Source: an archaeon (GTDB lineage Archaea; Nanobdellota; Nanobdellia; Pacearchaeales; GW2011-AR1). From it: a DNA stretch of 51,706 nucleotides. A program made the position numbers and the translations under genes. Positions 9,436 to 51,706 of this stretch are shown here, piece after piece. The stretch spans positions 1-51,706 of the forward strand of contig JBDRCB010000010.1 in NCBI GenBank assembly GCA_043822125.1. The letters are read 5' to 3'. The notes below the pieces were generated by a model. That model ran no database searches. It worked only from the letters and a program-made list of their open reading frames with translations, and was not told the origin of the DNA. Every line of letters begins with the position of its first letter. Positions within the stretch are counted from its first letter, which is position 1.

Positions 9436-9640
9436 GTATTTCATAGGATAAAAGGATATATAAATTTAGCGATAGATAGTTTTTAATACTTTTAAGAATA
9501 TAAATAAATCTTAAATAAAGTATTTAATCTCTTTTATGAGCAGATAAAATATAGAACTCTAAGCCGACGTCGCTACGGCGGTTTAGTTGGAAGATTTCGC
9601 AGGAAATCTTTTTCAAGTTGTTGAACATTTTCAGAAAGAA

Positions 9641-9736
9641 AAAGCCCTGTAGTACAAGCAAAAGTTTAACAACTTTTACTTCGTTCGTATGTTATACATC
9701 CAAACGAGCGGATGATACATAAAGCCCTGTAGTACA
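9641..9736 (+). repeat. 16-bp direct repeat of the tRNA-Gln 5' end
   Basis: aaagccctgtagtaca at 9641-9656 and 9721-9736. Confidence 0.9.
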
Positions 9737-9795
9737 GCGGTCAAGTATGCGAGACTCTGGCTCTCGTGACCCAGGTTCGAATCCTGGCAGGGCTA
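9723..9795 (+). tRNA. tRNA-Gln(CTG)
   Basis: AGCCCTG/CAGGGCT acceptor stem, CGAGA-CTCTGGC-TCTCG anticodon arm, CCAGG-TTCGAAT-CCTGG T arm. Confidence 0.95.
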
Positions 9796-9894
9796 CTCAT
9801 AATTAATTAAAAAAGAAATAATGCCTGAATTTGATAGAGGGTTAATTCGGGTGGATGATTTGGGAAGGATTCAAGGGTTGTGGAAAAGTGGGGG

Positions 9895-10491
9895 TTAATT
9901 TTTTTGAGCAATTAGGAAACCTATTTTGTTATTCCATTCTTCGTCCTCATCGTATTCTTCAAATTCCTCATAATTCAAAATATTCCATTCAGAATAAATT
10001 TCTTTTAATTCTTTTAGTTTAAAATAATAACCTTCTGAATCATCCTCTTGAGAAGGATCTCCTTCTAAAAGAACTTTGAAAATATTTAATCCTTTATTGT
10101 TTGTTTTTTTCTTACAATCTTCAAGCAATTCCCTTAAGCTTTTTTCAGAGAGAAAATGAAATGTTCCTGTCGAGATAATAATATCATAATCTTCTCTAAT
10201 AGGATAATTTTCTAAATCCGCAATAATGGAATTTATCTTAATCATCTTTTTTTCAGCTTCTTTTTTAAGTTTCTTAATCACTGTTTTAGAAATATCTACA
10301 CAAGTTACATCAAATCCTAATTCTGCTAATTTTAATGTGGTTCCTCCTTCTCCACAACCCAAGTCTAAGACTTTTCCTAATTTTTTATACTTCAGAATTT
10401 CTTTGATTATATTTTCATCTGGAGAAAACTCAAAGTTATAATCTTCTCTTGAAAAAACATTTTTTTCAAAATGATATTTTTCTTCAGTCAT
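9895..10491 (-). CDS. Class I SAM-dependent methyltransferase (TehB-like)
   Basis: VLDLGCGEG, VTCVDIS, YDIIISTGTFHFL. Confidence 0.85.
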   Translation of the reverse strand: MTEEKYHFEKNVFSREDYNFEFSPDENIIKEILKYKKLGKVLDLGCGEGGTTLKLAELGFDVTCVDISKTVIKKLKKEAEKKMIKINSIIADLENYPIREDYDIIISTGTFHFLSEKSLRELLEDCKKKTNNKGLNIFKVLLEGDPSQEDDSEGYYFKLKELKEIYSEWNILNYEEFEEYDEDEEWNNKIGFLIAQKN

Positions 10492-11569
10492 CTATAATCA
10501 CCTTGTTTCTTATTTTTAAAAATTTACTGATTTCATCTTCCAAAGTTTGTTTTGGAATTTTATCTTCAAATTCTGTTGAATACCCTATATTAAATCCCTC
10601 CACTAAGCGAATTGCTACAAAACTGGCTAAACTATTTTCAAAGTAATTCATAGATTCATAAAAAGCAGTTATTGCTAATTGAATATCTGTCTTTTTTAAT
10701 TCTTCAAATAATTCTTCATTCTGAATTTCTTCTTTACTAAAACAACTTTCTAAATCACATATTCCTATTGAACCATCAGGGCAAATTACTTCGTTGCCAT
10801 ACCAGGAATTTCCAATACCTCTTAAATATCCTTCTTTGTGAATTCTCTTATAAATTCCTCCGATTATCTTTCCAAGGTGAAGAAATTTTTCTCCATAATT
10901 GACATTTAAAATCTTTAATCCCTCATTTAGAAAATACTTTGGGAAAAACATTTGAAACTTCTTTAAATCAATTTTAAACTCTTCTTCATAAACCTCCTGT
11001 AAAAAATTAGTAAGAAGCATCATACAAAACTCATCTGCTCTAAAATCTGATTCTATTTCTTGGATTAGTGCGACAGCATCTTCAGAATCTTCAAAAAGAA
11101 GTTCAATTTTATGAAGTGCAATTGTCCTTTGAGGAACATTAAATCCCTTAGATACAAATTCTTTTTCAATCTTAATTTCTCTTTGAGCATCTTCTAAACT
11201 CATTGCTCCCCCAAATTCATTAGAAGATTCTTCAGTTAATCCATTTGATAAGTTAAAGGTTCTATCGGGAATAATTTTTTCCTTAAATCCTTCTAATCTA
11301 TAACCGTTCCGTTTAATCTTATAAAATTTTTCATTTATTTTTATGATTGAAGAACCAACTCCGCTACTCAGCCCAATTAAATTTTCCCCTTCAGATTTGA
11401 TTAAAAAAGGAACTTTTTCTTTTTCAAAAATAGGAATATATTTTGAATTAACTAAATTTACTTTTTTTCTATTTGTTAAACTCAAACTAATTGTAGGGGA
11501 ATTATTAGATGAAGACCATCCACTATGAAATCCGATTGCAAAATAAGGGAATCTTAAATCAGTTTCCAT
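10484..11569 (-). CDS. Hypothetical protein, probable kinase-like/SelO-like fold
   Basis: YKIKRNG, GGAMSLEDAQRE..EKEF..KGFNVPQR, HKEGYLRG...GN...ICDLES. Confidence 0.5.
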   Translation of the reverse strand: METDLRFPYFAIGFHSGWSSSNNSPTISLSLTNRKKVNLVNSKYIPIFEKEKVPFLIKSEGENLIGLSSGVGSSIIKINEKFYKIKRNGYRLEGFKEKIIPDRTFNLSNGLTEESSNEFGGAMSLEDAQREIKIEKEFVSKGFNVPQRTIALHKIELLFEDSEDAVALIQEIESDFRADEFCMMLLTNFLQEVYEEEFKIDLKKFQMFFPKYFLNEGLKILNVNYGEKFLHLGKIIGGIYKRIHKEGYLRGIGNSWYGNEVICPDGSIGICDLESCFSKEEIQNEELFEELKKTDIQLAITAFYESMNYFENSLASFVAIRLVEGFNIGYSTEFEDKIPKQTLEDEISKFLKIRNKVIIDD

Positions 11570-12536
11570 GTTTTAAAATTTTAGCTATTGAAGTTCCGCC
11601 AGAACATGCATCGGTCAAATATTCACAACTTTTACATTCATCAAAAACCCCTTTATCCAAATAAGGAATTTTAACTTTATTCAGATGCCTATAAGCTTGT
11701 TTAAATGAATCAAATTCTAAAAGTGAAGATAAATCATTTCCTGCTAAGGGTAGGCATCTCCATATCTTTAAATCTGGAGAAATATCAAAGAACGGAGGGC
11801 ATTTAAATTGAATATCATTTTGAGTTCCTTCAAAGATATAAAGGTCTTCCTTTGGAATAGCACATTTTGGAACAGTTAAATCTGCCCATGTTTTTATACC
11901 TCTTTTATTTGCTTCCTTTACAATTTCTATTGCCCTCTTACTTATCCCTTGAACATTCTCTAATGATTGATAACCTTTTGTTAACCCAGATTTAATTGTA
12001 GGTTCAACAATCGCCCATCTTAATTGAAATCCATATTCTTCTGCTAAATCTAAGTGCTCTTCAAATCTAGTTTGCGGTGTATCCAAAATTAACCCCACAC
12101 TTGTGGGGTGCCCTTTTAATTGTTCAAATGTTTTAATTATCTTTTTTAATTTTTCTTCAGAATAAGCATGTTTTCCGAGATAAGTTATTTCTGCTTCTAA
12201 TGGATAATTAATGTTTGAAAATTTTTCTCTAAACGAATTTGGCCAGAGAGCATTAGTACTAAATCCCACTGGGATTCCCAAATTATGAACAGATTCTCCA
12301 AAATCTAATGCTTGTGGGTGCAAGGATGGTTCTCCCCCCAAAAGATTAACTTGTAATAATTTTTCTTGTTCTAATTTTTTTAAAAGAATTTCCATACTTC
12401 CCTCAGACATCTTTTTTGAAGCATGTTGATTTTTCATAAAATCATCTGCAATGCACCAAGAACATCCAGCATTACATGTAGACGTTAGAAGAACGTTCAC
12501 ACAGAGGTCATCTTCTGAGTGTTTTAATAAACTCAT
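11559..12536 (-). CDS. Radical SAM protein with Cys-rich SPASM-like C-terminus
   Basis: CNAGCSWC, LLGGEPSLHP, KCPPF...WRCLP...CKSCEYLTDACSGG. Confidence 0.9.
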   Translation of the reverse strand: MSLLKHSEDDLCVNVLLTSTCNAGCSWCIADDFMKNQHASKKMSEGSMEILLKKLEQEKLLQVNLLGGEPSLHPQALDFGESVHNLGIPVGFSTNALWPNSFREKFSNINYPLEAEITYLGKHAYSEEKLKKIIKTFEQLKGHPTSVGLILDTPQTRFEEHLDLAEEYGFQLRWAIVEPTIKSGLTKGYQSLENVQGISKRAIEIVKEANKRGIKTWADLTVPKCAIPKEDLYIFEGTQNDIQFKCPPFFDISPDLKIWRCLPLAGNDLSSLLEFDSFKQAYRHLNKVKIPYLDKGVFDECKSCEYLTDACSGGTSIAKILKHGN

Positions 12537-12788
12537 AAAATTGGAATAAATACCTAACTTTTAAATCTTTCTTATTAGAATATTTCTTCTTACAACTTAA
12601 CCCCAAATTTTCCATTTCTACGTCGCTAATTCTCCAATTTTCTCAGTAAACATTTATTAATGAGTAAGTTTTTATTTTGCTGTAAAATGGCGACGAGGAA
12701 ATTAAAAAATAATAAAATAAAAAAGAGTGAAATTGGTTCGGAAGGAATAATAGAAAGATTTATATAATACTTATAGTTAATATATAAC

Positions 12789-13025
12789 ATGGAAAAAACT
12801 ACTATTCAAATAAATGTTGAAACTCTTGAAAGATTGAAAGCTCTAAAAAACTTTGAAAGACAGTCTTATGACGAACTCTTAACTAACCTAATAAATAATT
12901 GTGAGGAAGAAGTTATGGGAGAAGATGAAATCAATGAAATTCAAAAAGGACTAGAAGACATTAAAAAAGGGAAAGTTTATTCTATTGAATCTGTTGCCAA
13001 AGAATTAGGGATAATGCTCAATTAA
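12789..13025 (+). CDS. Putative antitoxin (RHH-like N-terminus, acidic C-terminus)
   Basis: TTIQINVETLERLKALK...SYDELL; lies 1 bp upstream of a RelE-like gene. Confidence 0.75.
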   Translation: MEKTTIQINVETLERLKALKNFERQSYDELLTNLINNCEEEVMGEDEINEIQKGLEDIKKGKVYSIESVAKELGIMLN

Positions 13026-13026
13026 A

Positions 13027-13275
13027 ATGTTTCAGATAGAATTAACTGAAACAGCAAAAGGATTTCTTAAAAAGTTACAAAAAAAGGATATGGAGATAAT
13101 CTTAAATAAAATCTATTCTCTAAGAGAAAATCCTTATAGGTTTCTTAAAAGATTACATGGCGAAAAATTATGGAGATTAAGAATTGGAGATTATCGAGCA
13201 ATCATTGATGTTATAGTTTCTATGAATAAAGTTGTGGTCGTGAGAGTTGGTCGCAGAAAAAACGTTTACAATTAA
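13027..13275 (+). CDS. relE: RelE/ParE-family toxin
   Basis: KRLHGEKLWRLRIGDYRAI...VGRRKNVY. Confidence 0.9.
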   Translation: MFQIELTETAKGFLKKLQKKDMEIILNKIYSLRENPYRFLKRLHGEKLWRLRIGDYRAIIDVIVSMNKVVVVRVGRRKNVYN

Positions 13276-13393
13276 CTTTTAATTCTATTTTTTCAGTAAA
13301 CATTTAAATATCAGTAAGCTTTTATTTTGCTGTAAAATTCTTGAAATGACAAATTTTCAAAAGATTTTTATACTTTCTACTCTTAATTTTTTT

Positions 13394-39755: not shown

Positions 39756-40352
39756 TTATGTCTTTTCAGCAATAAAATTTATCATTAATTCTGAGCTTAG
39801 TGTAGATGTTATTTTAAATCCTCTTTTTTTAAAAAGTTTATGAATTTCATCTTCTTCAAAAAGATAATAATATCTCTCTCCTTTGTCCCTCCATTTTACA
39901 TATTTTTCGTTTTGTGCGTTTTTGAATCTTTTTGAGTTTTTGTTCCAAACACCGACGAAAACTTCTGCATTTGATTTTAAAACTCTGTGTAATTCTTCAA
40001 CTGCTTTTTCTCTTTTTTTACTTCCTTTAATGCAGTGAAGAGAGGAGATGAAGACTGCAGAATCAAAAAAATCATTTTGAAATGGGAGTTTTGTAAAATC
40101 CGCCTTAATAAACTCTGCCTTGATGTTTCTTTCGTCTGCTTTTTTTCCAGCGAGCTTCAGCATTTTTTCTGAAAAATCAACAAGATATATTTTTCCTTTT
40201 TTTATTTTTATTAAATGCCTTCCTGAACCACTGCCTAAATCCAGGACATTTCCAGTCTGTTTTTTCAAAAATTCAATTACATTTTCTGCTGGTTTTGTTT
40301 TGAACTCATGCCATTCCTCTGCTATGTTATTCCAGATTTTTTTTTGGTTCAT
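39756..40352 (-). CDS. Class I SAM methyltransferase, Trm9-like
   Basis: VLDLGSGSGRH, FISSLHCI...REKAVEELHRVLK...VGVW, VKW...RYYYLF...EI. Confidence 0.8.
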   Translation of the reverse strand: MNQKKIWNNIAEEWHEFKTKPAENVIEFLKKQTGNVLDLGSGSGRHLIKIKKGKIYLVDFSEKMLKLAGKKADERNIKAEFIKADFTKLPFQNDFFDSAVFISSLHCIKGSKKREKAVEELHRVLKSNAEVFVGVWNKNSKRFKNAQNEKYVKWRDKGERYYYLFEEDEIHKLFKKRGFKITSTLSSELMINFIAEKT

Positions 40353-40448
40353 TTTAAATTAATTCTCTTATTTTATAAAAGGAAAAAGTAGTTAAAAATA
40401 TTTGTTCTTTTTTAGAAAGTTTTATCAATTAATTATTTTTTAATTAAA

Positions 40449-40751
40449 ATGGGCTCTATAGAAGAAGATGTAGCAGATTACAGATGGATTCCTGACCTCT
40501 CTGGAAAAGAATTAGGAGCATTATTAAAATATGAAGAAAAACATAGAGTAGAATCTAAAGAAGATTCTCATTTATTGGATTTGTTTGGGGTATGGGTGAA
40601 AAGAAAGAAAGAAGTTAAGCTTGGGGAAATCATTGAAACTGCTGAAATTGTCGAGCCAAATATTATTGCACTTATTAAACGTTATCGTTTATATAAAATT
40701 CCTTTTTTTGGAGGTATAATAAAAGTTTTTTATCCAGCTCCTTATTCATAG
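40449..40751 (+). CDS. Hypothetical protein
   Basis: 100-aa ORF filling an intergenic gap. Confidence 0.55.
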   Translation: MGSIEEDVADYRWIPDLSGKELGALLKYEEKHRVESKEDSHLLDLFGVWVKRKKEVKLGEIIETAEIVEPNIIALIKRYRLYKIPFFGGIIKVFYPAPYS

Positions 40752-40790
40752 TTTTATAAAATTTATATAGTATATCTTAATGCAATTATA

Positions 40791-42161
40791 ATGCTAAAAC
40801 CCTCAAAAGATGAAATCAGAAAGCCGACGAAGACAATTTCTGGCGTCACTCCAATAGCAGTTATGCTTCCTCCTCGGCAGTGCAACCACGGAAAGTGTAT
40901 TTACTGTCCGTCGCTGGATGTTCCTCAGAGTTATACTCCGAAAAGTCCTGTTGTTATGAGGGCAGAGAGATTAGATTATGATCCGTATAAGCAGGTTCGC
41001 GCGAGGATTAAAGCATTTAGAATTATGAACCATCCTACTGATAAAATAGAATTAATAATAATGGGTGGGACTTTTTTGCAGTACCCTAAGCAGTTTCAGT
41101 ATGATTTTATAAGAAGATGCTACGACGGATTGAATGAAAAAGAATCTAAAAATTTAGGAGATGCGCAGAAAATTAATGAAAAGGCGAAAAACAGGTGTGT
41201 TGCACTTTGCATTGAAACCCGTCCTGATTACTGCATTAAATTCATAAAAAGAATGCGGGAGTTTGGAGTTACGAGGGTTGAGCTGGGGGTGCAGATTATC
41301 GACGATAAAATTTATAGTTTGATTAACCGAGGGCATAGGGTTGAAGATGTTATCAATGCAACACGCGCGCTGAAAGATGCAGGGTTTAAAATAGGATATC
41401 ATATTATGCCGGGGCTTCCAGGAAGCAATCTTAAAAAAGATTTGAGACTTTTCAAAAAGCTTTTTTCCGACGAGAAATTCAGACCAGACCAGCTTAAAAT
41501 TTATCCGTGCCAGGTTATGCCGGGCTCTGAACTTGAAAAATTATATTGGGGCAAAAAATATATTCCATATAACAAACAGCAGATTAAGGAGATTGTTATT
41601 GCTATGCTGCGGGAAGTTCCGAGATACTGCAGAGTCATGCGCGTGATGAGGGAGATTCCACCTTCTTATCTTGTGGCTGGAACAAAAAATATTGATTTGC
41701 GGAGAGATATAGAATATGAATTTCGGAAAAGAAAAGAGGAATTAAAAGAAATAAGATACAGGGAAATTGGTTTTGCTTTAAGAGGTGAAGAAGAAGTTGA
41801 TATGAATTTAAATCTTAAAATTACAAAATATAAATCTTCAGGAGGAATTGAATATTTTCTGGAAATTATTAATAAAAAAAATATTTTGTTTGGGTTGTTG
41901 CGACTGCGAATTTCCTGTAATCAAGGAATTGTCAGAGAACTACATGTTTACGGCCCTGCATTGAGATTAGGTGAAAAAAGCAAAACCTCTTCTCAGCACG
42001 GGGGGCTTGGAAAATGGCTTCTCAGCGAGGCAGAAAAAATAGCAAAGAGAAACAAGATGAAATTTTTAAAGATAATCAGCGGGGTGGGAGTCAGGGAATA
42101 TTATAAAAAATTTAATTATAAAACCGGAGAGATGGGTTATATGATTAAATCTCTGGAATGA
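40791..42161 (+). CDS. elp3: Elp3 tRNA uridine(34) acetyltransferase (radical SAM + KAT)
   Basis: CNHGKCIYCP, MGGTF, ETRPD, HIMPGLP, KIYP, VRELHVYG, QHGGLG, ISGVGVREYY. Confidence 0.95.
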   Translation: MLKPSKDEIRKPTKTISGVTPIAVMLPPRQCNHGKCIYCPSLDVPQSYTPKSPVVMRAERLDYDPYKQVRARIKAFRIMNHPTDKIELIIMGGTFLQYPKQFQYDFIRRCYDGLNEKESKNLGDAQKINEKAKNRCVALCIETRPDYCIKFIKRMREFGVTRVELGVQIIDDKIYSLINRGHRVEDVINATRALKDAGFKIGYHIMPGLPGSNLKKDLRLFKKLFSDEKFRPDQLKIYPCQVMPGSELEKLYWGKKYIPYNKQQIKEIVIAMLREVPRYCRVMRVMREIPPSYLVAGTKNIDLRRDIEYEFRKRKEELKEIRYREIGFALRGEEEVDMNLNLKITKYKSSGGIEYFLEIINKKNILFGLLRLRISCNQGIVRELHVYGPALRLGEKSKTSSQHGGLGKWLLSEAEKIAKRNKMKFLKIISGVGVREYYKKFNYKTGEMGYMIKSLE

Positions 42162-47059: not shown

Positions 47060-47728
47060 ATGAAGATCAAAGACCTTCCAGAGCAAAATAGGCCAAGAGA
47101 GAGATTTCTTAAACATGGACCTGAAACACTTAGTGATGCAGAATTGTTTGCAATAATTCTAAGAACTGGTTCTCAAAAAGAAAATGTTATTGACATGTCT
47201 AACAGACTCATTAAAGAATATGGATTAAATAATTTATTTGATTGCTCACTTAAAGAACTCCAAAAAATAAAAGGAATTGGCCCATCAAAAGCAATGCAAC
47301 TTCTGGCGATGGCAGAGTTGGGAAAGAGATACAATCAATCTCAAATACTTCAAAAAAAGAAAATAACCTGTGCAGAAGATGTGTTTAATCATTTTCATGA
47401 ACGTCTTAAAGACAAAAAACAAGAAGAGTTTCATATACTCATGCTCAATACTCAAAATCATATAATTGGAGAGCAGTTAATAAGTAAGGGAACCTTAGAT
47501 GCGTCTCTTGTCCATCCAAGAGAAGTGTTTAAACCTGCGATAAAGAATTCAGCATCAAAGATTATCCTGGTTCATAATCATCCAAGTGGAGATTGTTTTC
47601 CAAGCGATGAAGACTATGAAATATTTAGAATAATTTCAGAAACAGGGAAAAATCTACAAATAAAAATTTTAGATAATGTGATTATTGCTAATAATAAAAA
47701 ATGGAGTTACGTTGAAGATAGAATTTAA
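47060..47728 (+). CDS. radC: RadC/UPF0758 JAB-domain protein
   Basis: RPRERF..G...LSDAEL, KGIGPSKA, VHPREVF, HNHPSGD..PS.ED. Confidence 0.95.
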   Translation: MKIKDLPEQNRPRERFLKHGPETLSDAELFAIILRTGSQKENVIDMSNRLIKEYGLNNLFDCSLKELQKIKGIGPSKAMQLLAMAELGKRYNQSQILQKKKITCAEDVFNHFHERLKDKKQEEFHILMLNTQNHIIGEQLISKGTLDASLVHPREVFKPAIKNSASKIILVHNHPSGDCFPSDEDYEIFRIISETGKNLQIKILDNVIIANNKKWSYVEDRI

Positions 47729-50403
47729 GAAATATTTTTTATTAATTCTTCACCAAATCCATTTTCTGTTTCCTGATTATAGAATGGCAATCCAATAACT
47801 CTATAATTTTTTGTTTCAACAAATTTTTTTAGACCGTATTTTGCAGATCTTTCTTTAACTTTAAGTAAAAGTTTTTCTTTCCATTTATCGGTTTCTTCGA
47901 TATGTTTTCCTTTTGGTTCTATAAATATTTGATAGGTAAAAGTTTTTCCATTTTTGATTTTTAAAAATAAAACAAAATCGGGAGCAAATGCCTGCCCATC
48001 ATCAAAATCATAAATTTTAAAGTGCAATTCATTTCTTATCAGATAGATCTTTTCGTAATTATCTTTGATATTCTTAGATTCAATTATTTTGTCTATAAAT
48101 TTTACACAGGCTTTCTCCTCAGAAGTGCCATAATTTGCATTAAAAACATACCATTCTTTATCTTTTACAAAATCTTCCATCCCCTTGGACCTTTCACTAT
48201 TTTTTGGTAATTTCAAAGTCAACTCTTTAAATATTTCTGAAATTTTTTCTTGCTTAATAAATTCTGAACCAACATAATTAACCCTTGTTCTTTCTAAACT
48301 TTCTTTAATTTTGTTTAATAATTTCAGAATAGCATCTAATTTATATTTATTTGATATATTTTCCAAGTCCTCTTTAGTACCTTTAAAATCCATACTGATC
48401 CCTGATAAAAACTCTCTTTTTCTTACTAAATCATTAATTGAATTAAGTGCATTCGGAAACATTTGTTTTAAATTTTCAAAATTAAAGAACTCTATTTTTG
48501 ATAAGGCATTTTTTATTATATGTTTGTCTATATCTTTTAATGAAATAGTTTTAATTTTCTTATTTATATTAGAACTATCATAAGTTGAATCATTAAATGC
48601 CATAGATACCTCTCCTTTTCCCGAATAAATTTCATAAATCTCATTCTTTTGTGTGAAATCCATATCTGCAAATGATTTTATATTAGAATAATCTTTTTTT
48701 ATTTTTTTATTAAGATAAATTATTCCATTTTTATAAAAAGAGGTTTTCTTGAATTCTTCTTTTAGAATTAATTCTTTTTCTACCACATCATCTAAATCAA
48801 TGCCTAATTCTTCTCTTATTGCATTCTTTAAGTCTGCTACATATCTTGATTCATTCCAACTATGAAAATATAACTCTTCTAAAATTCTTAATTCTCTTTG
48901 AGTATCTCCATCAAACTTTCTTTTATACCTTTCTTGTGTTCCATCTAATATGAATGGATAATATCTTGCTCCTCTACCTATTAGTTGAGCTTCTGAAATT
49001 GTTGATTGAGCAATTCTTCCCCTTGTGCTTCCACCTGTTGCCTGTTTATCTGAAACTCTAACTATATCAAATAAATTTAATACCTCCCATCCTTCGTTTA
49101 GTTTTTGAACTGCAAAAATTGCCCTTATGTTGTTATTGGCGGATTCTAAAGAATTTAAGATTTTTTCTTGGGATATTACTTCTTCTTTATCTCTTTGAGA
49201 AATTGATTTTTTATCCAAACTTTCTTCATTTACATTTAAGCAATTTTTTTCAGAAAATCCTCTTTGTATTTTTTTAATTAAATCAGATATTGATATTTTT
49301 TCTTTATTATAGAATTCAAATACTTTTTTCATAATCTTTTCATTGCTTTTTCTTTTAATCTCTTCAATATTCTTATTTGAAAGATTATCTATCAGTTTTC
49401 TAAAATCTAATTCATTTTGTTTTGATTCTTCTATAGTCAGAGTTGCTTTAAACATAATTACTGGCTTAAAATTCTTTAAACCTAAAGATTCTGGAAATTC
49501 TTTTGCGTATTTTGATGCTACATCTTGCCTGTATTGGTTTACTAAAACTGCTGTAAGCATCCTATACCTTTTATCTCCATCTACCCTGAATAATTCAATA
49601 TCTTTAGAATATCCTGCTTGATGAAAACTTGGTAAATCATATTTATACAATAATCTTTTTAGGTATTTTTCTTTAATGCCAGGATAACTTTCAAAACCCA
49701 TTGTTGCTGTAAATTCTAAAAGTAAGCTTAGTTTGTCTTTCTTTAGGATTTCTTCAATAGTGTTTTCCCAGTTTGGCTTATTAGTTAATGTTTTTTGTTT
49801 AGTCTGAACTTGTCCATGATGGGCTTCATCTGCGATTAAGACTATTCTTTTATCCTTAAAACTATCAAATGTAACTGCATTTTCTTTTTCGTTGTGCATA
49901 TCTGAATGAAGTTTTTGTATTGTTGTAAAACAGATATTTATTTCATCTTTATTCGAAGAGTCAAAATTATCTACTTCTCTTATTTGGATAGGTTTTCTAT
50001 CAATCACAATTTTTTGGTTAAATAGATATTTTATTGAGCTTTGATCTAAGAAGTTTTCTTTAGTTTTCCCAATGATATTATTAGAATTTACAAAAAATAA
50101 GAAGTTATTATATCCTTTTTTGTAAAGATAATTTATCAATCCTGCCATAATTAGAGTTTTACCTGAACCTGTTGCCATGTTAAATAAAACTGCTTTTGGA
50201 ATTGGTTTTTCTTGATATTGCTCAAAATAAGAAATAAACATCTGAAAAGCTTTTTCTTGATATTCTCTTAATGGAAAGTCTGGATTTAGATTATCCTTTA
50301 TTTCTTTAGGAATTTCTATTCTTTCAATATCTCTTGTTCCAATGTATTTTTCAATGTCTTCATATAACCAGTCTTTATTTCCTGCAAGAGTAGTCTGCCC
50401 CAT
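47725..50403 (-). CDS. res: Type III restriction-modification Res subunit
   Basis: MATGSGKT, DEAHH, EFTAT, EGWEV, QLIGRGAR, PDF...IEPKG. Confidence 0.92.
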   Translation of the reverse strand: MGQTTLAGNKDWLYEDIEKYIGTRDIERIEIPKEIKDNLNPDFPLREYQEKAFQMFISYFEQYQEKPIPKAVLFNMATGSGKTLIMAGLINYLYKKGYNNFLFFVNSNNIIGKTKENFLDQSSIKYLFNQKIVIDRKPIQIREVDNFDSSNKDEINICFTTIQKLHSDMHNEKENAVTFDSFKDKRIVLIADEAHHGQVQTKQKTLTNKPNWENTIEEILKKDKLSLLLEFTATMGFESYPGIKEKYLKRLLYKYDLPSFHQAGYSKDIELFRVDGDKRYRMLTAVLVNQYRQDVASKYAKEFPESLGLKNFKPVIMFKATLTIEESKQNELDFRKLIDNLSNKNIEEIKRKSNEKIMKKVFEFYNKEKISISDLIKKIQRGFSEKNCLNVNEESLDKKSISQRDKEEVISQEKILNSLESANNNIRAIFAVQKLNEGWEVLNLFDIVRVSDKQATGGSTRGRIAQSTISEAQLIGRGARYYPFILDGTQERYKRKFDGDTQRELRILEELYFHSWNESRYVADLKNAIREELGIDLDDVVEKELILKEEFKKTSFYKNGIIYLNKKIKKDYSNIKSFADMDFTQKNEIYEIYSGKGEVSMAFNDSTYDSSNINKKIKTISLKDIDKHIIKNALSKIEFFNFENLKQMFPNALNSINDLVRKREFLSGISMDFKGTKEDLENISNKYKLDAILKLLNKIKESLERTRVNYVGSEFIKQEKISEIFKELTLKLPKNSERSKGMEDFVKDKEWYVFNANYGTSEEKACVKFIDKIIESKNIKDNYEKIYLIRNELHFKIYDFDDGQAFAPDFVLFLKIKNGKTFTYQIFIEPKGKHIEETDKWKEKLLLKVKERSAKYGLKKFVETKNYRVIGLPFYNQETENGFGEELIKNIS

Positions 50404-51706
50404 CTATTTTCCTCCATAGAATTTTTTATTAAGTTCCTTGTCTTCTTTAGAAACCTTAAACTGAGAATCTTCTATTTCTGAAAGATTTACATAAAGCTGG
50501 TTTTTATTGAGCATTTCCACTAAGGTTTCTTTTTGTTGTTTTAATGTTAATTTCTCAAAATCCTTCTTATTATCATTAAACTTCTTAATCTCTACATCAT
50601 AATTCAAGAAATAATATTCGCACATCTCATCCCATATTTTAAGAAGAGATTTTGTATCCTTTGCATCTTGAATTTTATCAATCGCATCCTCATTATATTT
50701 TAGAAGTTCGCAATAAGTGAAAGATTCTTTTGACTTATCATTCTCTAAAACTTTTGTTATCCTTTTTTTTATTACATCTGCATGGGTATCTAATTGTTCA
50801 ATAAGAATAAATTGCCTATTTCCGCTATCTTCTTTATTTAATTCTAATGTTGCATGAGCAGTTGTTCCACTTCCACCAAAGAAATCCATAATAATGTCAT
50901 TATTTGAAGTCATTATCTTTAAGGTATCTACAACAGCATACAGAGATTTTGGATAACTAAAAATATTTTCGCCTAAAATCTTTTTTAAGAGATTTGTTCC
51001 TTGGAATTCTGGCAAATATTTTTTATCTGTCCAAATATTTTTTAAAACTTGTTGTTCTCTAAATTTATGATATATTTTTATTTCCCCATTTTCTTTCTTT
51101 GCTACAAAAAAGCCATTCACATTTCTTTCATCAAATGTTTCAGGTTTAGTCTTCCATGTAAATTCTGAACCATTCTTTTTAGGAAGTATTTCATAGTATC
51201 CTGATTTTTTTTCTAAAGTTACTTCTTTTAAGTCTTTACTAACATAAATTGGATACCAAAAAGATGGTTTACTCTTTCTAGAAGTACTAGACCTTGCTCT
51301 TATGAATTGTTCCCATCTAAACTTCCCTTCTTCATCTTCCTGATTAAAAGATTGGGCAACCCCCTCATCAAGCGTTACACTTCTAAATCTTCCTATGTTA
51401 CTATTTTTCGCATAAACTAACATATATTCTGTAGATGCAGAGAAAAATCTTTCATGTTGCCTACCTTTTGGATTGATTAGTATTGTAACGATTCCAACCC
51501 TATTTTCAGCTCCAAATATCTCGTCAGCGATTGCACCCAAATAAAACAATTCAACATGGTCTATTGTTATAGCAACAAAGCCATCATCTCTCAGAAAATC
51601 ATTAGCTACTTCTAATCTATTTTTCATAAATGTAAGCCAAGTTGAGTGTTTGAAATTATTATTATATGTGAATATTTCCGTTGCTCCTCCTGTATTATAT
51701 GGGGGG
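50404..51706 (-). CDS. mod: Type III R-M Mod DNA methyltransferase (5'-truncated)
   Basis: Frame open to the window edge reading PPYNTG...KHSTWLTFMKNRL; FSYPKS, DFFGGSGTTAHA. Confidence 0.92.
   Translation of the reverse strand, partial: PPYNTGGATEIFTYNNNFKHSTWLTFMKNRLEVANDFLRDDGFVAITIDHVELFYLGAIADEIFGAENRVGIVTILINPKGRQHERFFSASTEYMLVYAKNSNIGRFRSVTLDEGVAQSFNQEDEEGKFRWEQFIRARSSTSRKSKPSFWYPIYVSKDLKEVTLEKKSGYYEILPKKNGSEFTWKTKPETFDERNVNGFFVAKKENGEIKIYHKFREQQVLKNIWTDKKYLPEFQGTNLLKKILGENIFSYPKSLYAVVDTLKIMTSNNDIIMDFFGGSGTTAHATLELNKEDSGNRQFILIEQLDTHADVIKKRITKVLENDKSKESFTYCELLKYNEDAIDKIQDAKDTKSLLKIWDEMCEYYFLNYDVEIKKFNDNKKDFEKLTLKQQKETLVEMLNKNQLYVNLSEIEDSQFKVSKEDKELNKKFYGGK

Follow-up and report, generated by a model that had tools for sequence, protein, structure and literature searches.

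What do three overlapping genes at positions 9,895 to 12,536 of contig JBDRCB010000010.1 (assembly GCA_043822125.1), from an archaeon of the Pacearchaeales, make together? The window analysed here is the whole stretch of 51,706 nucleotides to which these positions refer, and the source assembly amounts to 519 kb, spread over 10 contigs, with a completeness of 71%. The genes encode a radical S-adenosylmethionine (SAM, AdoMet) enzyme (rSAM), a protein that we call X, and a TehB-like methyltransferase (MT), with locations detailed in Table 1. All three are co-oriented on the minus strand, with overlaps of 11 nt between rSAM and X and 8 nt between X and MT, and they are best explained as one translationally coupled operon. 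An earlier note on this DNA, made from the sequence alone, had described three overlapping co-oriented genes between a tRNA-Gln gene and a toxin-antitoxin module; the open reading frame (ORF) coordinates, overlaps and neighbours agree with that description. Our tentative answer is that the trio serves as an accessory pathway in which a polyamine is either derivatised or ligated to a carboxylate, with ATP/AMP activation, radical chemistry and methylation. We ranked this explanation first, followed by peptide or protein modification, nucleic-acid modification, defence and the handling of SAM by-products.

The trio was compared across 34 sources, namely the window, six loci from a genome collection, 24 metagenome loci and three loci from a phylum scan. 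The genomes of the relatives are metagenome-assembled Woese-, Pace- and Nanoarchaeota. Of the 26 sources with more than 300 nt of downstream sequence, 25 have a homologue of MT 3′ of X, the exception being the distant X-like gene of locus L048. An rSAM gene lies directly upstream of X wherever the 5′ end of X and some upstream flank are available, apart from L046, where the order is permuted to X-MT-rSAM; in L002/L012 the rSAM gene is reduced to a fragment of 62 aa. Hence, the trio recurs in related loci, which the earlier note had suggested looking for. At four loci (L006, L029, L030 and L038), X is reduced to its C-terminal 129-162 residues despite available upstream sequence, with an intact MT at L029; these are decayed copies of the cluster. 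In total, X was present in eight of the 401 genomes of the phylum sample. The earlier note's view that the trio is not a described system still stands: no trio-specific model exists in Pfam, NCBIfam or PADLOC, and no such cluster was found in the literature. A literature search yielded no paper combining DPANN, spermidine synthase and radical SAM, and a search for radical SAM/SPASM enzymes together with a spermidine gene cluster yielded none whose title or abstract describes such a cluster.

The likely substrate class is narrowed by the gene neighbourhood, which the earlier note had missed. Most relatives carry the trio as the distal (3′) half of a longer operon, with spermidine synthesis encoded in the 5′ half. 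Of the 19 sources that could be judged, 14 have genes of the SpeE and/or SpeD families next to the trio; once identical contigs were merged (L003 with L015, L004 with L016, L005 with L018, and L002 with L012), this corresponds to 12 of 15 distinct loci, and for one of the 12, L031, the assignment depends on a weak partial match. Four arrangements were distinguished. The order dc1-speE-dc2-rSAM-X-MT, with a divergent AsnC-type regulator, is found in L001, L003, L004 and L014, while L010, L013 and L023 have dc1-speE-rSAM-X-MT and no dc2. The trio and speE-dc1 are convergent in L021, and the order is BpsA_C-like-speE-SpeD-X-MT-rSAM in L046, a locus from a Pacearchaeota-type genome with an X that is 39% identical. 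In L003, SpeE matches the polyamine aminopropyltransferase model PRK00811 with 305.5 bits (cut-off 260), and dc1 matches the AdoMet decarboxylase model TIGR03330 with 91.9 bits (cut-off 75.65). The dc2 gene encodes a divergent SpeD paralogue below the curated cut-off. It is similar to the arginine or ornithine decarboxylases of SpeD origin that occur in DPANN and other lineages according to Li et al. (PMC10407285).

Several further genes accompany these operons. Directly upstream of speE in L046 is a gene for a protein of 337 aa with the C-terminal domain of branched-chain polyamine synthase (PF01861, 87.7 bits). Downstream of the L003 operon, on the opposite strand, are a CofC/DUF2064-like nucleotidyltransferase-NUDIX fusion and a MoaA-like radical SAM gene. 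The X homologue in genome G099 (locus L048; 28% identical) is followed by a gene for a KamA-family amino-acid 2,3-aminomutase (TIGR00238, 264.8 bits, cut-off 199.2), which fits the theme of a ligase for amino acids or amines; a TrmB regulator and a CysK/SbnA-like pyridoxal-phosphate enzyme are also encoded downstream. In the genome of the window, a dc2-like SpeD paralogue (131 aa) lies beside a divergently oriented KamA/lysine-2,3-aminomutase-like radical SAM gene (378 aa, LAM_C), whose product is 38% identical to the KamA-family protein of G099. Because KamA-like genes thus stand both beside a SpeD paralogue and beside a distant X, the aminomutase is linked to the pyruvoyl decarboxylase as well as to the X family. 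A strong SpeE match (E ≤ 1e-40) was found in eight of the 401 phylum genomes. Only one of these eight (G348) has X, and on this evidence the trio resembles an uncommon, optional extension of polyamine synthesis. The overall tallies of this comparison take in three genomes flagged as unpublished.

The second protein, X, has a protein-kinase-like fold. The AlphaFold model (pLDDT 91.5, pTM 0.91) shows a two-lobed kinase fold with a Gly-rich loop, a β3 Lys, an αC Glu and a DFG-type Asp, and Foldseek matched it to protein kinases, YdiU and SelO with probabilities of 0.99-1.00, at low global TM-scores. This confirms the kinase fold for which the earlier note had proposed such a check, with SelO/YdiU among the top structural matches. 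Features of the model are the Gly-rich loop at residues 66-73, K86, E131, R177/D179/E180, H244, N259 and D272, while R250-G251-I252 replaces the kinase H-x-D. The residues invariant in 34 members of the X family include G70, K86, R87, G89, G121, R177, D179, E180, W256, N259 and D272, and E131, H244, R250 and G251 are near-invariant. The motifs that the earlier note had read as SelO-like in their order (K86/R87/G89, G121, E131, H244, R250/G251, N259, D272) are thus conserved, but the likeness to SelO in sequence did not reach significance. X probably uses ATP.

Alignments of X with Bud32 and with SelO, weak and of low probability in both cases, are consistent with one another as well as with the structural matches. 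In the Bud32 alignment, H244 falls on the His of 'KLH', R250-G251-I252 lies opposite H-G-D, and D272 falls on the DFG Asp. In the SelO alignment, 'RGIGNS' of X lies opposite 'HGVMNT' of SelO, and the αC 'RE' and an 'S-x-x-R' segment are aligned as well. The HGV motif is the SelO counterpart of the kinase HGD motif according to Dudkiewicz et al. (PMC3281104). From these weak alignments, X appears to lack the catalytic Asp used by phosphotransferases. A comparison by hhalign of the X family with the single E. coli SelO sequence was also tried, and gave nothing useful.

X matched no model in Pfam, NCBIfam or PADLOC. Since it fits the kinase fold and matches none of the SelO, IucA_IucC and Bud32 models, X is a new kinase-fold family that belongs to none of SelO, the NIS synthetases and Bud32. 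X differs from each of these. SelO/YdiU, with the remote MchC/MceJ branch, measures about 480 aa in SelO against 361 aa in X, which lacks the C-terminal part of SelO, and the gene neighbourhoods of SelO (PMC3281104) are unlike those of X. The NIS synthetases SbnC, AcsD, AsbB and IucA comprise 550-600 aa with thumb, palm and finger domains and are 7-9% identical to X; a radical SAM enzyme is not known to be a normal part of NIS clusters. Bud32/PRPK of the KEOPS complex has about 200 aa and covers just residues ~40-334 of X, which has Ile at the position of the Bud32 HGD Asp. The only match to the Bud32 model TIGR03724 in the whole genome is a separate gene on contig C9 (201 bits, cut-off 125).

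Relatives of X form 38 clusters at 90% identity. An exhaustive search of 1.84 billion proteins gave 55 representatives at 50% identity, some of them bacterial, of which 11 had E ≤ 1e-30. A Pfam scan of 26 distant homologues revealed no significant family, and five of these, P0038 among them, have N-terminal extensions of ~130-210 aa. No longer fused form of X was found among proteins of 997-2845 aa, the only lengths covered, which makes this weak evidence. The nearest neighbours of X in the Atlas search were mostly unnamed clusters from bacteria of the candidate phyla radiation (CPR) and from Thermoplasmatota; a cluster named 'MchC protein', 35% of it with a SelO domain, ranked 19th.

The structural scores of X against NIS synthetases were 12.6 for SbnC, 11.3 for AcsD, 10.0 for AsbB and 9.4 for IucA (249-265 residues, within residues 1-334 of X). 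Small-molecule kinases scored lower, with 11.0 for WaaP, 10.6 for maltokinase, ~9.5 for APH and 9.1 for methylthioribose kinase. NIS synthetases transfer AMP in reactions with di- and polyamines (PMC9356276), and MchC is involved in a similar ligation to a peptide. Taken together, the fold, the conserved residues and the neighbourhood fit best with an ATP-using, AMP-transferring enzyme that acts on amines or carboxylates.

The other two proteins belong to recognisable superfamilies. rSAM carries the invariant motif C21-x3-C25-x2-C28 and matches PF04055 with 49.4 bits (cut-off 29.5), which places it in the radical SAM superfamily, and its overall fold resembles that of solved SPASM enzymes. Six more Cys are invariant across 20 aligned homologues (C225, C246, C261, C301, C304 and C311). 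The canonical SPASM motif is Cx2Cx5Cx3C, and the full canonical set of auxiliary-cluster Cys is absent. The residue after C311-S-G-G is Thr in the window, Pro in most relatives and Cys in only the most distant homologues, P0115 and P0116; the replacement of the final SPASM Cys by Thr that the earlier note had seen is therefore real, and the loss is family-wide. The SPASM model PF13186 was not matched, and no models other than PF04055 and PF13353 appeared at E ≤ 0.1. Every NCBIfam equivalog stayed far under its cut-off. Compared with the SPASM/twitch enzymes SuiB, ChlB, anSME, PqqE, SkfB and BlsE, rSAM lacks the last Cys of the usual motif and an N-terminal extension. MT matched PF03848 (TehB) with 96.6 bits (cut-off 20.4), and its nearest solved relative is the TehB homologue 3m70 (E 7.5e-22), in keeping with the earlier assignment of gene 3 to TehB-like methyltransferases. 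It scored below the cut-offs of the NCBIfam TehB equivalogs (110.6/303, 96.8/219.5 and 88.9/218 bits). The TehB tellurite-resistance methyltransferase shares the Pfam model and the best solved relatives with MT, whereas its gene context is wholly different.

From the observed gene structure, folds, conserved residues and neighbourhoods, we infer every chemical step and the substrate of the polyamine pathway as follows. SpeD and SpeE, whose genes are located elsewhere or are missing in this assembly, would supply spermidine or a related polyamine. X would then activate one partner with ATP, where AMP transfer (adenylation) is more likely than phosphate transfer; SelO, MchC and the NIS synthetases would serve as models, being AMP-transferring or ligating enzymes of the kinase fold. 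The SPASM-like rSAM would act on this substrate too, by a radical C-H reaction, and one iron of its auxiliary cluster is perhaps free for substrate binding, because one of the usual Cys ligands is absent. Finally, MT would methylate the product, perhaps on an amine.

A more specific version of the polyamine pathway would be an undescribed DPANN branch in which a SelO-like X without the catalytic Asp adenylates a carboxylate or the polyamine's partner and attaches spermidine, after which the open-site SPASM enzyme and an N-methyltransferase complete the conjugate, either as a free metabolite or as a hypusine-like mark on a protein. We regard this version as less likely than not. Diphthamide synthesis and the beta-lysylation of EF-P are protein modifications that combine radical SAM chemistry, ATP-dependent adenylation and further tailoring, and they follow the same enzyme-class logic as the trio. 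The KamA-like genes beside a distant X homologue and beside the SpeD paralogue of this genome are a further parallel; they stand outside the trio itself. As far as compared, the enzymes of these two pathways have no homologue in the trio.

Several observations weigh against a polyamine pathway. In the genome of the window, 71% complete as assembled, neither SpeE nor a BpsA-like gene was detected, and its two SpeD paralogues are on contigs C6 and C4 rather than at the trio; the polyamine link is therefore indirect in this genome. Genomes G177 and G099 (completeness 96% or more) lack SpeE but contain a remnant of X or an X-like gene. The adjacency to polyamine genes could reflect mere shared use of SAM or shared regulation. 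Pairwise identities of SpeE/SpeD correlated with those of X (r 0.94-0.97; 36 pairs from nine loci), but we discarded this as evidence because shared ancestry explains it. With respect to X itself, the structural scores of the ATPases/kinases Bud32/PRPK are as high as those of the AMP-transferring enzymes, and the profile-profile comparison with ten archaeal Bud32 was weak (E 0.0081, probability 4.9, 84 columns). The hhalign comparison with six SelO sequences was not significant (E 0.09, probability 0.6, 121 columns). Neither PF02696 (SelO) nor PF04183 (IucA_IucC) had a match anywhere in the genome even at E ≤ 10. Moreover, the six best structural matches of rSAM are all peptide or protein modifiers. 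Three distinct loci lack polyamine neighbours, and two of these (L005/L018 and L002/L012) have a ThiF-family E1-like gene beside the trio. In L005, the trio is flanked by this gene, a gene for a protein of 197 aa without a significant solved relative, a second methyltransferase gene and a second rSAM/SPASM gene. In L012, a deletion joins a fragment of the same ThiF gene to the rSAM fragment, and the arrangement hence recurs in two lineages of X.

The ThiF arrangement and the structural relatives of rSAM fit better with a modification of a ribosomally synthesised peptide (RiPP-like) or of a cellular protein. According to this explanation, a residue would be cross-linked or oxidised by the SPASM enzyme, X would act on a residue or the C-terminus by AMPylation, phosphorylation or ligation of a group, possibly a polyamine, and MT would methylate. 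We consider it an unlikely alternative, although the one to take most seriously. The earlier note had found no precursor peptide nearby, and our search bears this out: at ORF lengths above the limit of 12-15 aa, no conserved small ORF occurs in the 700 nt 3′ of MT in 21 sources, and none of the four intergenic small ORFs of the window recurs elsewhere. rSAM has no additional N-terminal domain: the stretch of SuiB that its model covers begins at chain residue 101, past the part in which the recognition domain of SuiB lies. Furthermore, peptide or protein modification alone leaves the polyamine neighbourhood unexplained. A modification of tRNA, rRNA or DNA, in which X activates a base or sugar position to which an amine or polyamine is then attached, would suit the adjacent tRNA gene and the structural likeness of X to Bud32. 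This is improbable, since the tRNA adjacency is absent from related loci, the genome has a separate true Bud32 whose model leaves X unmatched, and a Pfam scan detected no RNA-binding domain in the trio. The presence of X in so few genomes of the phylum sample also argues against a nucleic-acid modification.

The earlier note had considered an antiviral role possible; one form of it would be a viperin-like maker of modified nucleotides combined with a kinase. We find this very improbable, only slightly less so than the by-product scheme discussed below. rSAM scores 36.1 bits against the prokaryotic viperin model NF038283 (cut-off 180), over residues 11-96 only, and the pVip models of PADLOC match only residues 10-97. 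It also has a Cys-rich SPASM-like tail, which viperins are not known to carry. PADLOC 2.0 left X unmatched, and the matches of rSAM and MT were confined to generic portions of the models for pVip, mad2 and methylases. Proteins encoded around the trio at five loci (the window, L003, L005, L013 and L046) were scanned as well: one of the 54 had a full-length match to a defence family, and the other matches were to generic domains. The one match is a full-length CARF/Csa3-like regulator encoded ~900 nt downstream of the trio in L013 (PADLOC PDLC01849, 227 bits), the sole clear defence-associated neighbour. The recurrent neighbours of the trio are polyamine genes rather than defence genes, a scan of viral contigs gave 56 pattern matches of which none was confirmed as a relative, and the toxin-antitoxin pair near the trio looks like a separate insertion. 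Hence, the suggestion of an antiviral role is not upheld. Least probable of all is that the trio handles SAM by-products such as methylthioadenosine or 5′-deoxyadenosine, with X as a sugar or nucleoside kinase. The matches of X to small-molecule kinases score below those to Bud32, SelO and NIS synthetases, the Asp required for phosphotransfer seems to be missing in the weak alignments, and a radical SAM enzyme would be expected to produce such by-products rather than remove them.

The surroundings of the trio in the window are mostly housekeeping genes, among them those for PheRS, ThrRS and a PEP-utilising enzyme (Table 1). The RelB-like/ParE pair has its own direct repeats, which suggests that it is a small cassette acquired independently of the trio. 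The GC content is 0.285 at 10-14 kb compared with 0.344-0.347 at 2-10 kb, and comparably low values occur elsewhere in the window. We also searched for repeats of the tRNA end as the mark of an integrated island around the trio. This candidate was rejected: the search gave just one repeat of 23 nt, and because it sits on the side of the tRNA away from the trio, no clear island boundary is apparent. The repeat is perhaps left over from an ancient integration or duplication event. An Rfam scan of the window revealed two tRNAs and no riboswitch. Among public sequencing runs, none of RNA was listed as containing this DNA, and one DNA run contained a small share (0.07). Elsewhere in the window, the giant ORF probably encodes a surface protein, a type III restriction-modification pair adjoins a RadC gene, and a second small methyltransferase gene faces an Elp3-like radical SAM gene; the latter pair has no sequence kinship to the trio.

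Table 1. Locations of the trio, of its neighbours in the window and of genes in related loci or on other contigs (C4, C9) of the same genome.
Feature	Location	Strand	Remarks
Radical SAM gene (rSAM), 325 aa	12536..11559	minus	PF04055 match, CxxxCxxC, SPASM-like C-terminal part
Protein X gene, 361 aa	11569..10484	minus	kinase-like fold in AlphaFold model, no library family
TehB-like class I SAM-dependent methyltransferase gene (MT), 198 aa	10491..9895	minus	PF03848
tRNA-Gln(CTG)	9723-9796		adjoins trio on MT side
DUF7557/RelB-like and ParE-family genes (toxin-antitoxin pair)	12789-13275	opposite to trio	
52-nt direct repeats	12637-12688 and 13287-13338		88% identical; flank RelB-like/ParE pair
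23-nt repeat	9634-9656		copy of 9714-9736 (87%), which spans the tRNA-Gln 5′ end; 80 nt upstream of the tRNA
Giant ORF, 2309 aa	15-6944		MG2 (macroglobulin-like) domain as sole Pfam match
Second small class I methyltransferase and Elp3-like radical SAM genes	39756-42161	methyltransferase minus	198 aa; 456 aa with Radical_SAM_C
Type III restriction-modification pair	47725-51627		ResIII helicase-like subunit and N6/N4 DNA methylase
dc2-like SpeD paralogue and KamA-like gene	C4:9806-12057 (L058:4807-7058)		
Bud32 gene	C9:112873-113454		TIGR03724
BpsA_C-like gene	L046:10613-11626		
Nucleotidyltransferase-NUDIX fusion and MoaA-like gene	L003:7449-9504	opposite to operon	
ThiF-family E1-like and other genes that flank the trio	L005:431-4182		also L018
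ThiF fragment joined to rSAM fragment	L012:1679-2265		also L002
CARF/Csa3-like regulator gene	L013:6205-6888		

In very small archaeal genomes, polyamines are thought to have little role beyond the supply of spermidine, for example to deoxyhypusine synthase, which the genome of the window encodes. If the polyamine pathway proposed here is correct, the trio together with SpeD/SpeE would imply a new polyamine derivative or a polyamine-based modification. It would also provide the first functional handle on a protein family that is absent from Pfam and NCBIfam, and X would add to the kinase-fold enzymes that work without the catalytic Asp.

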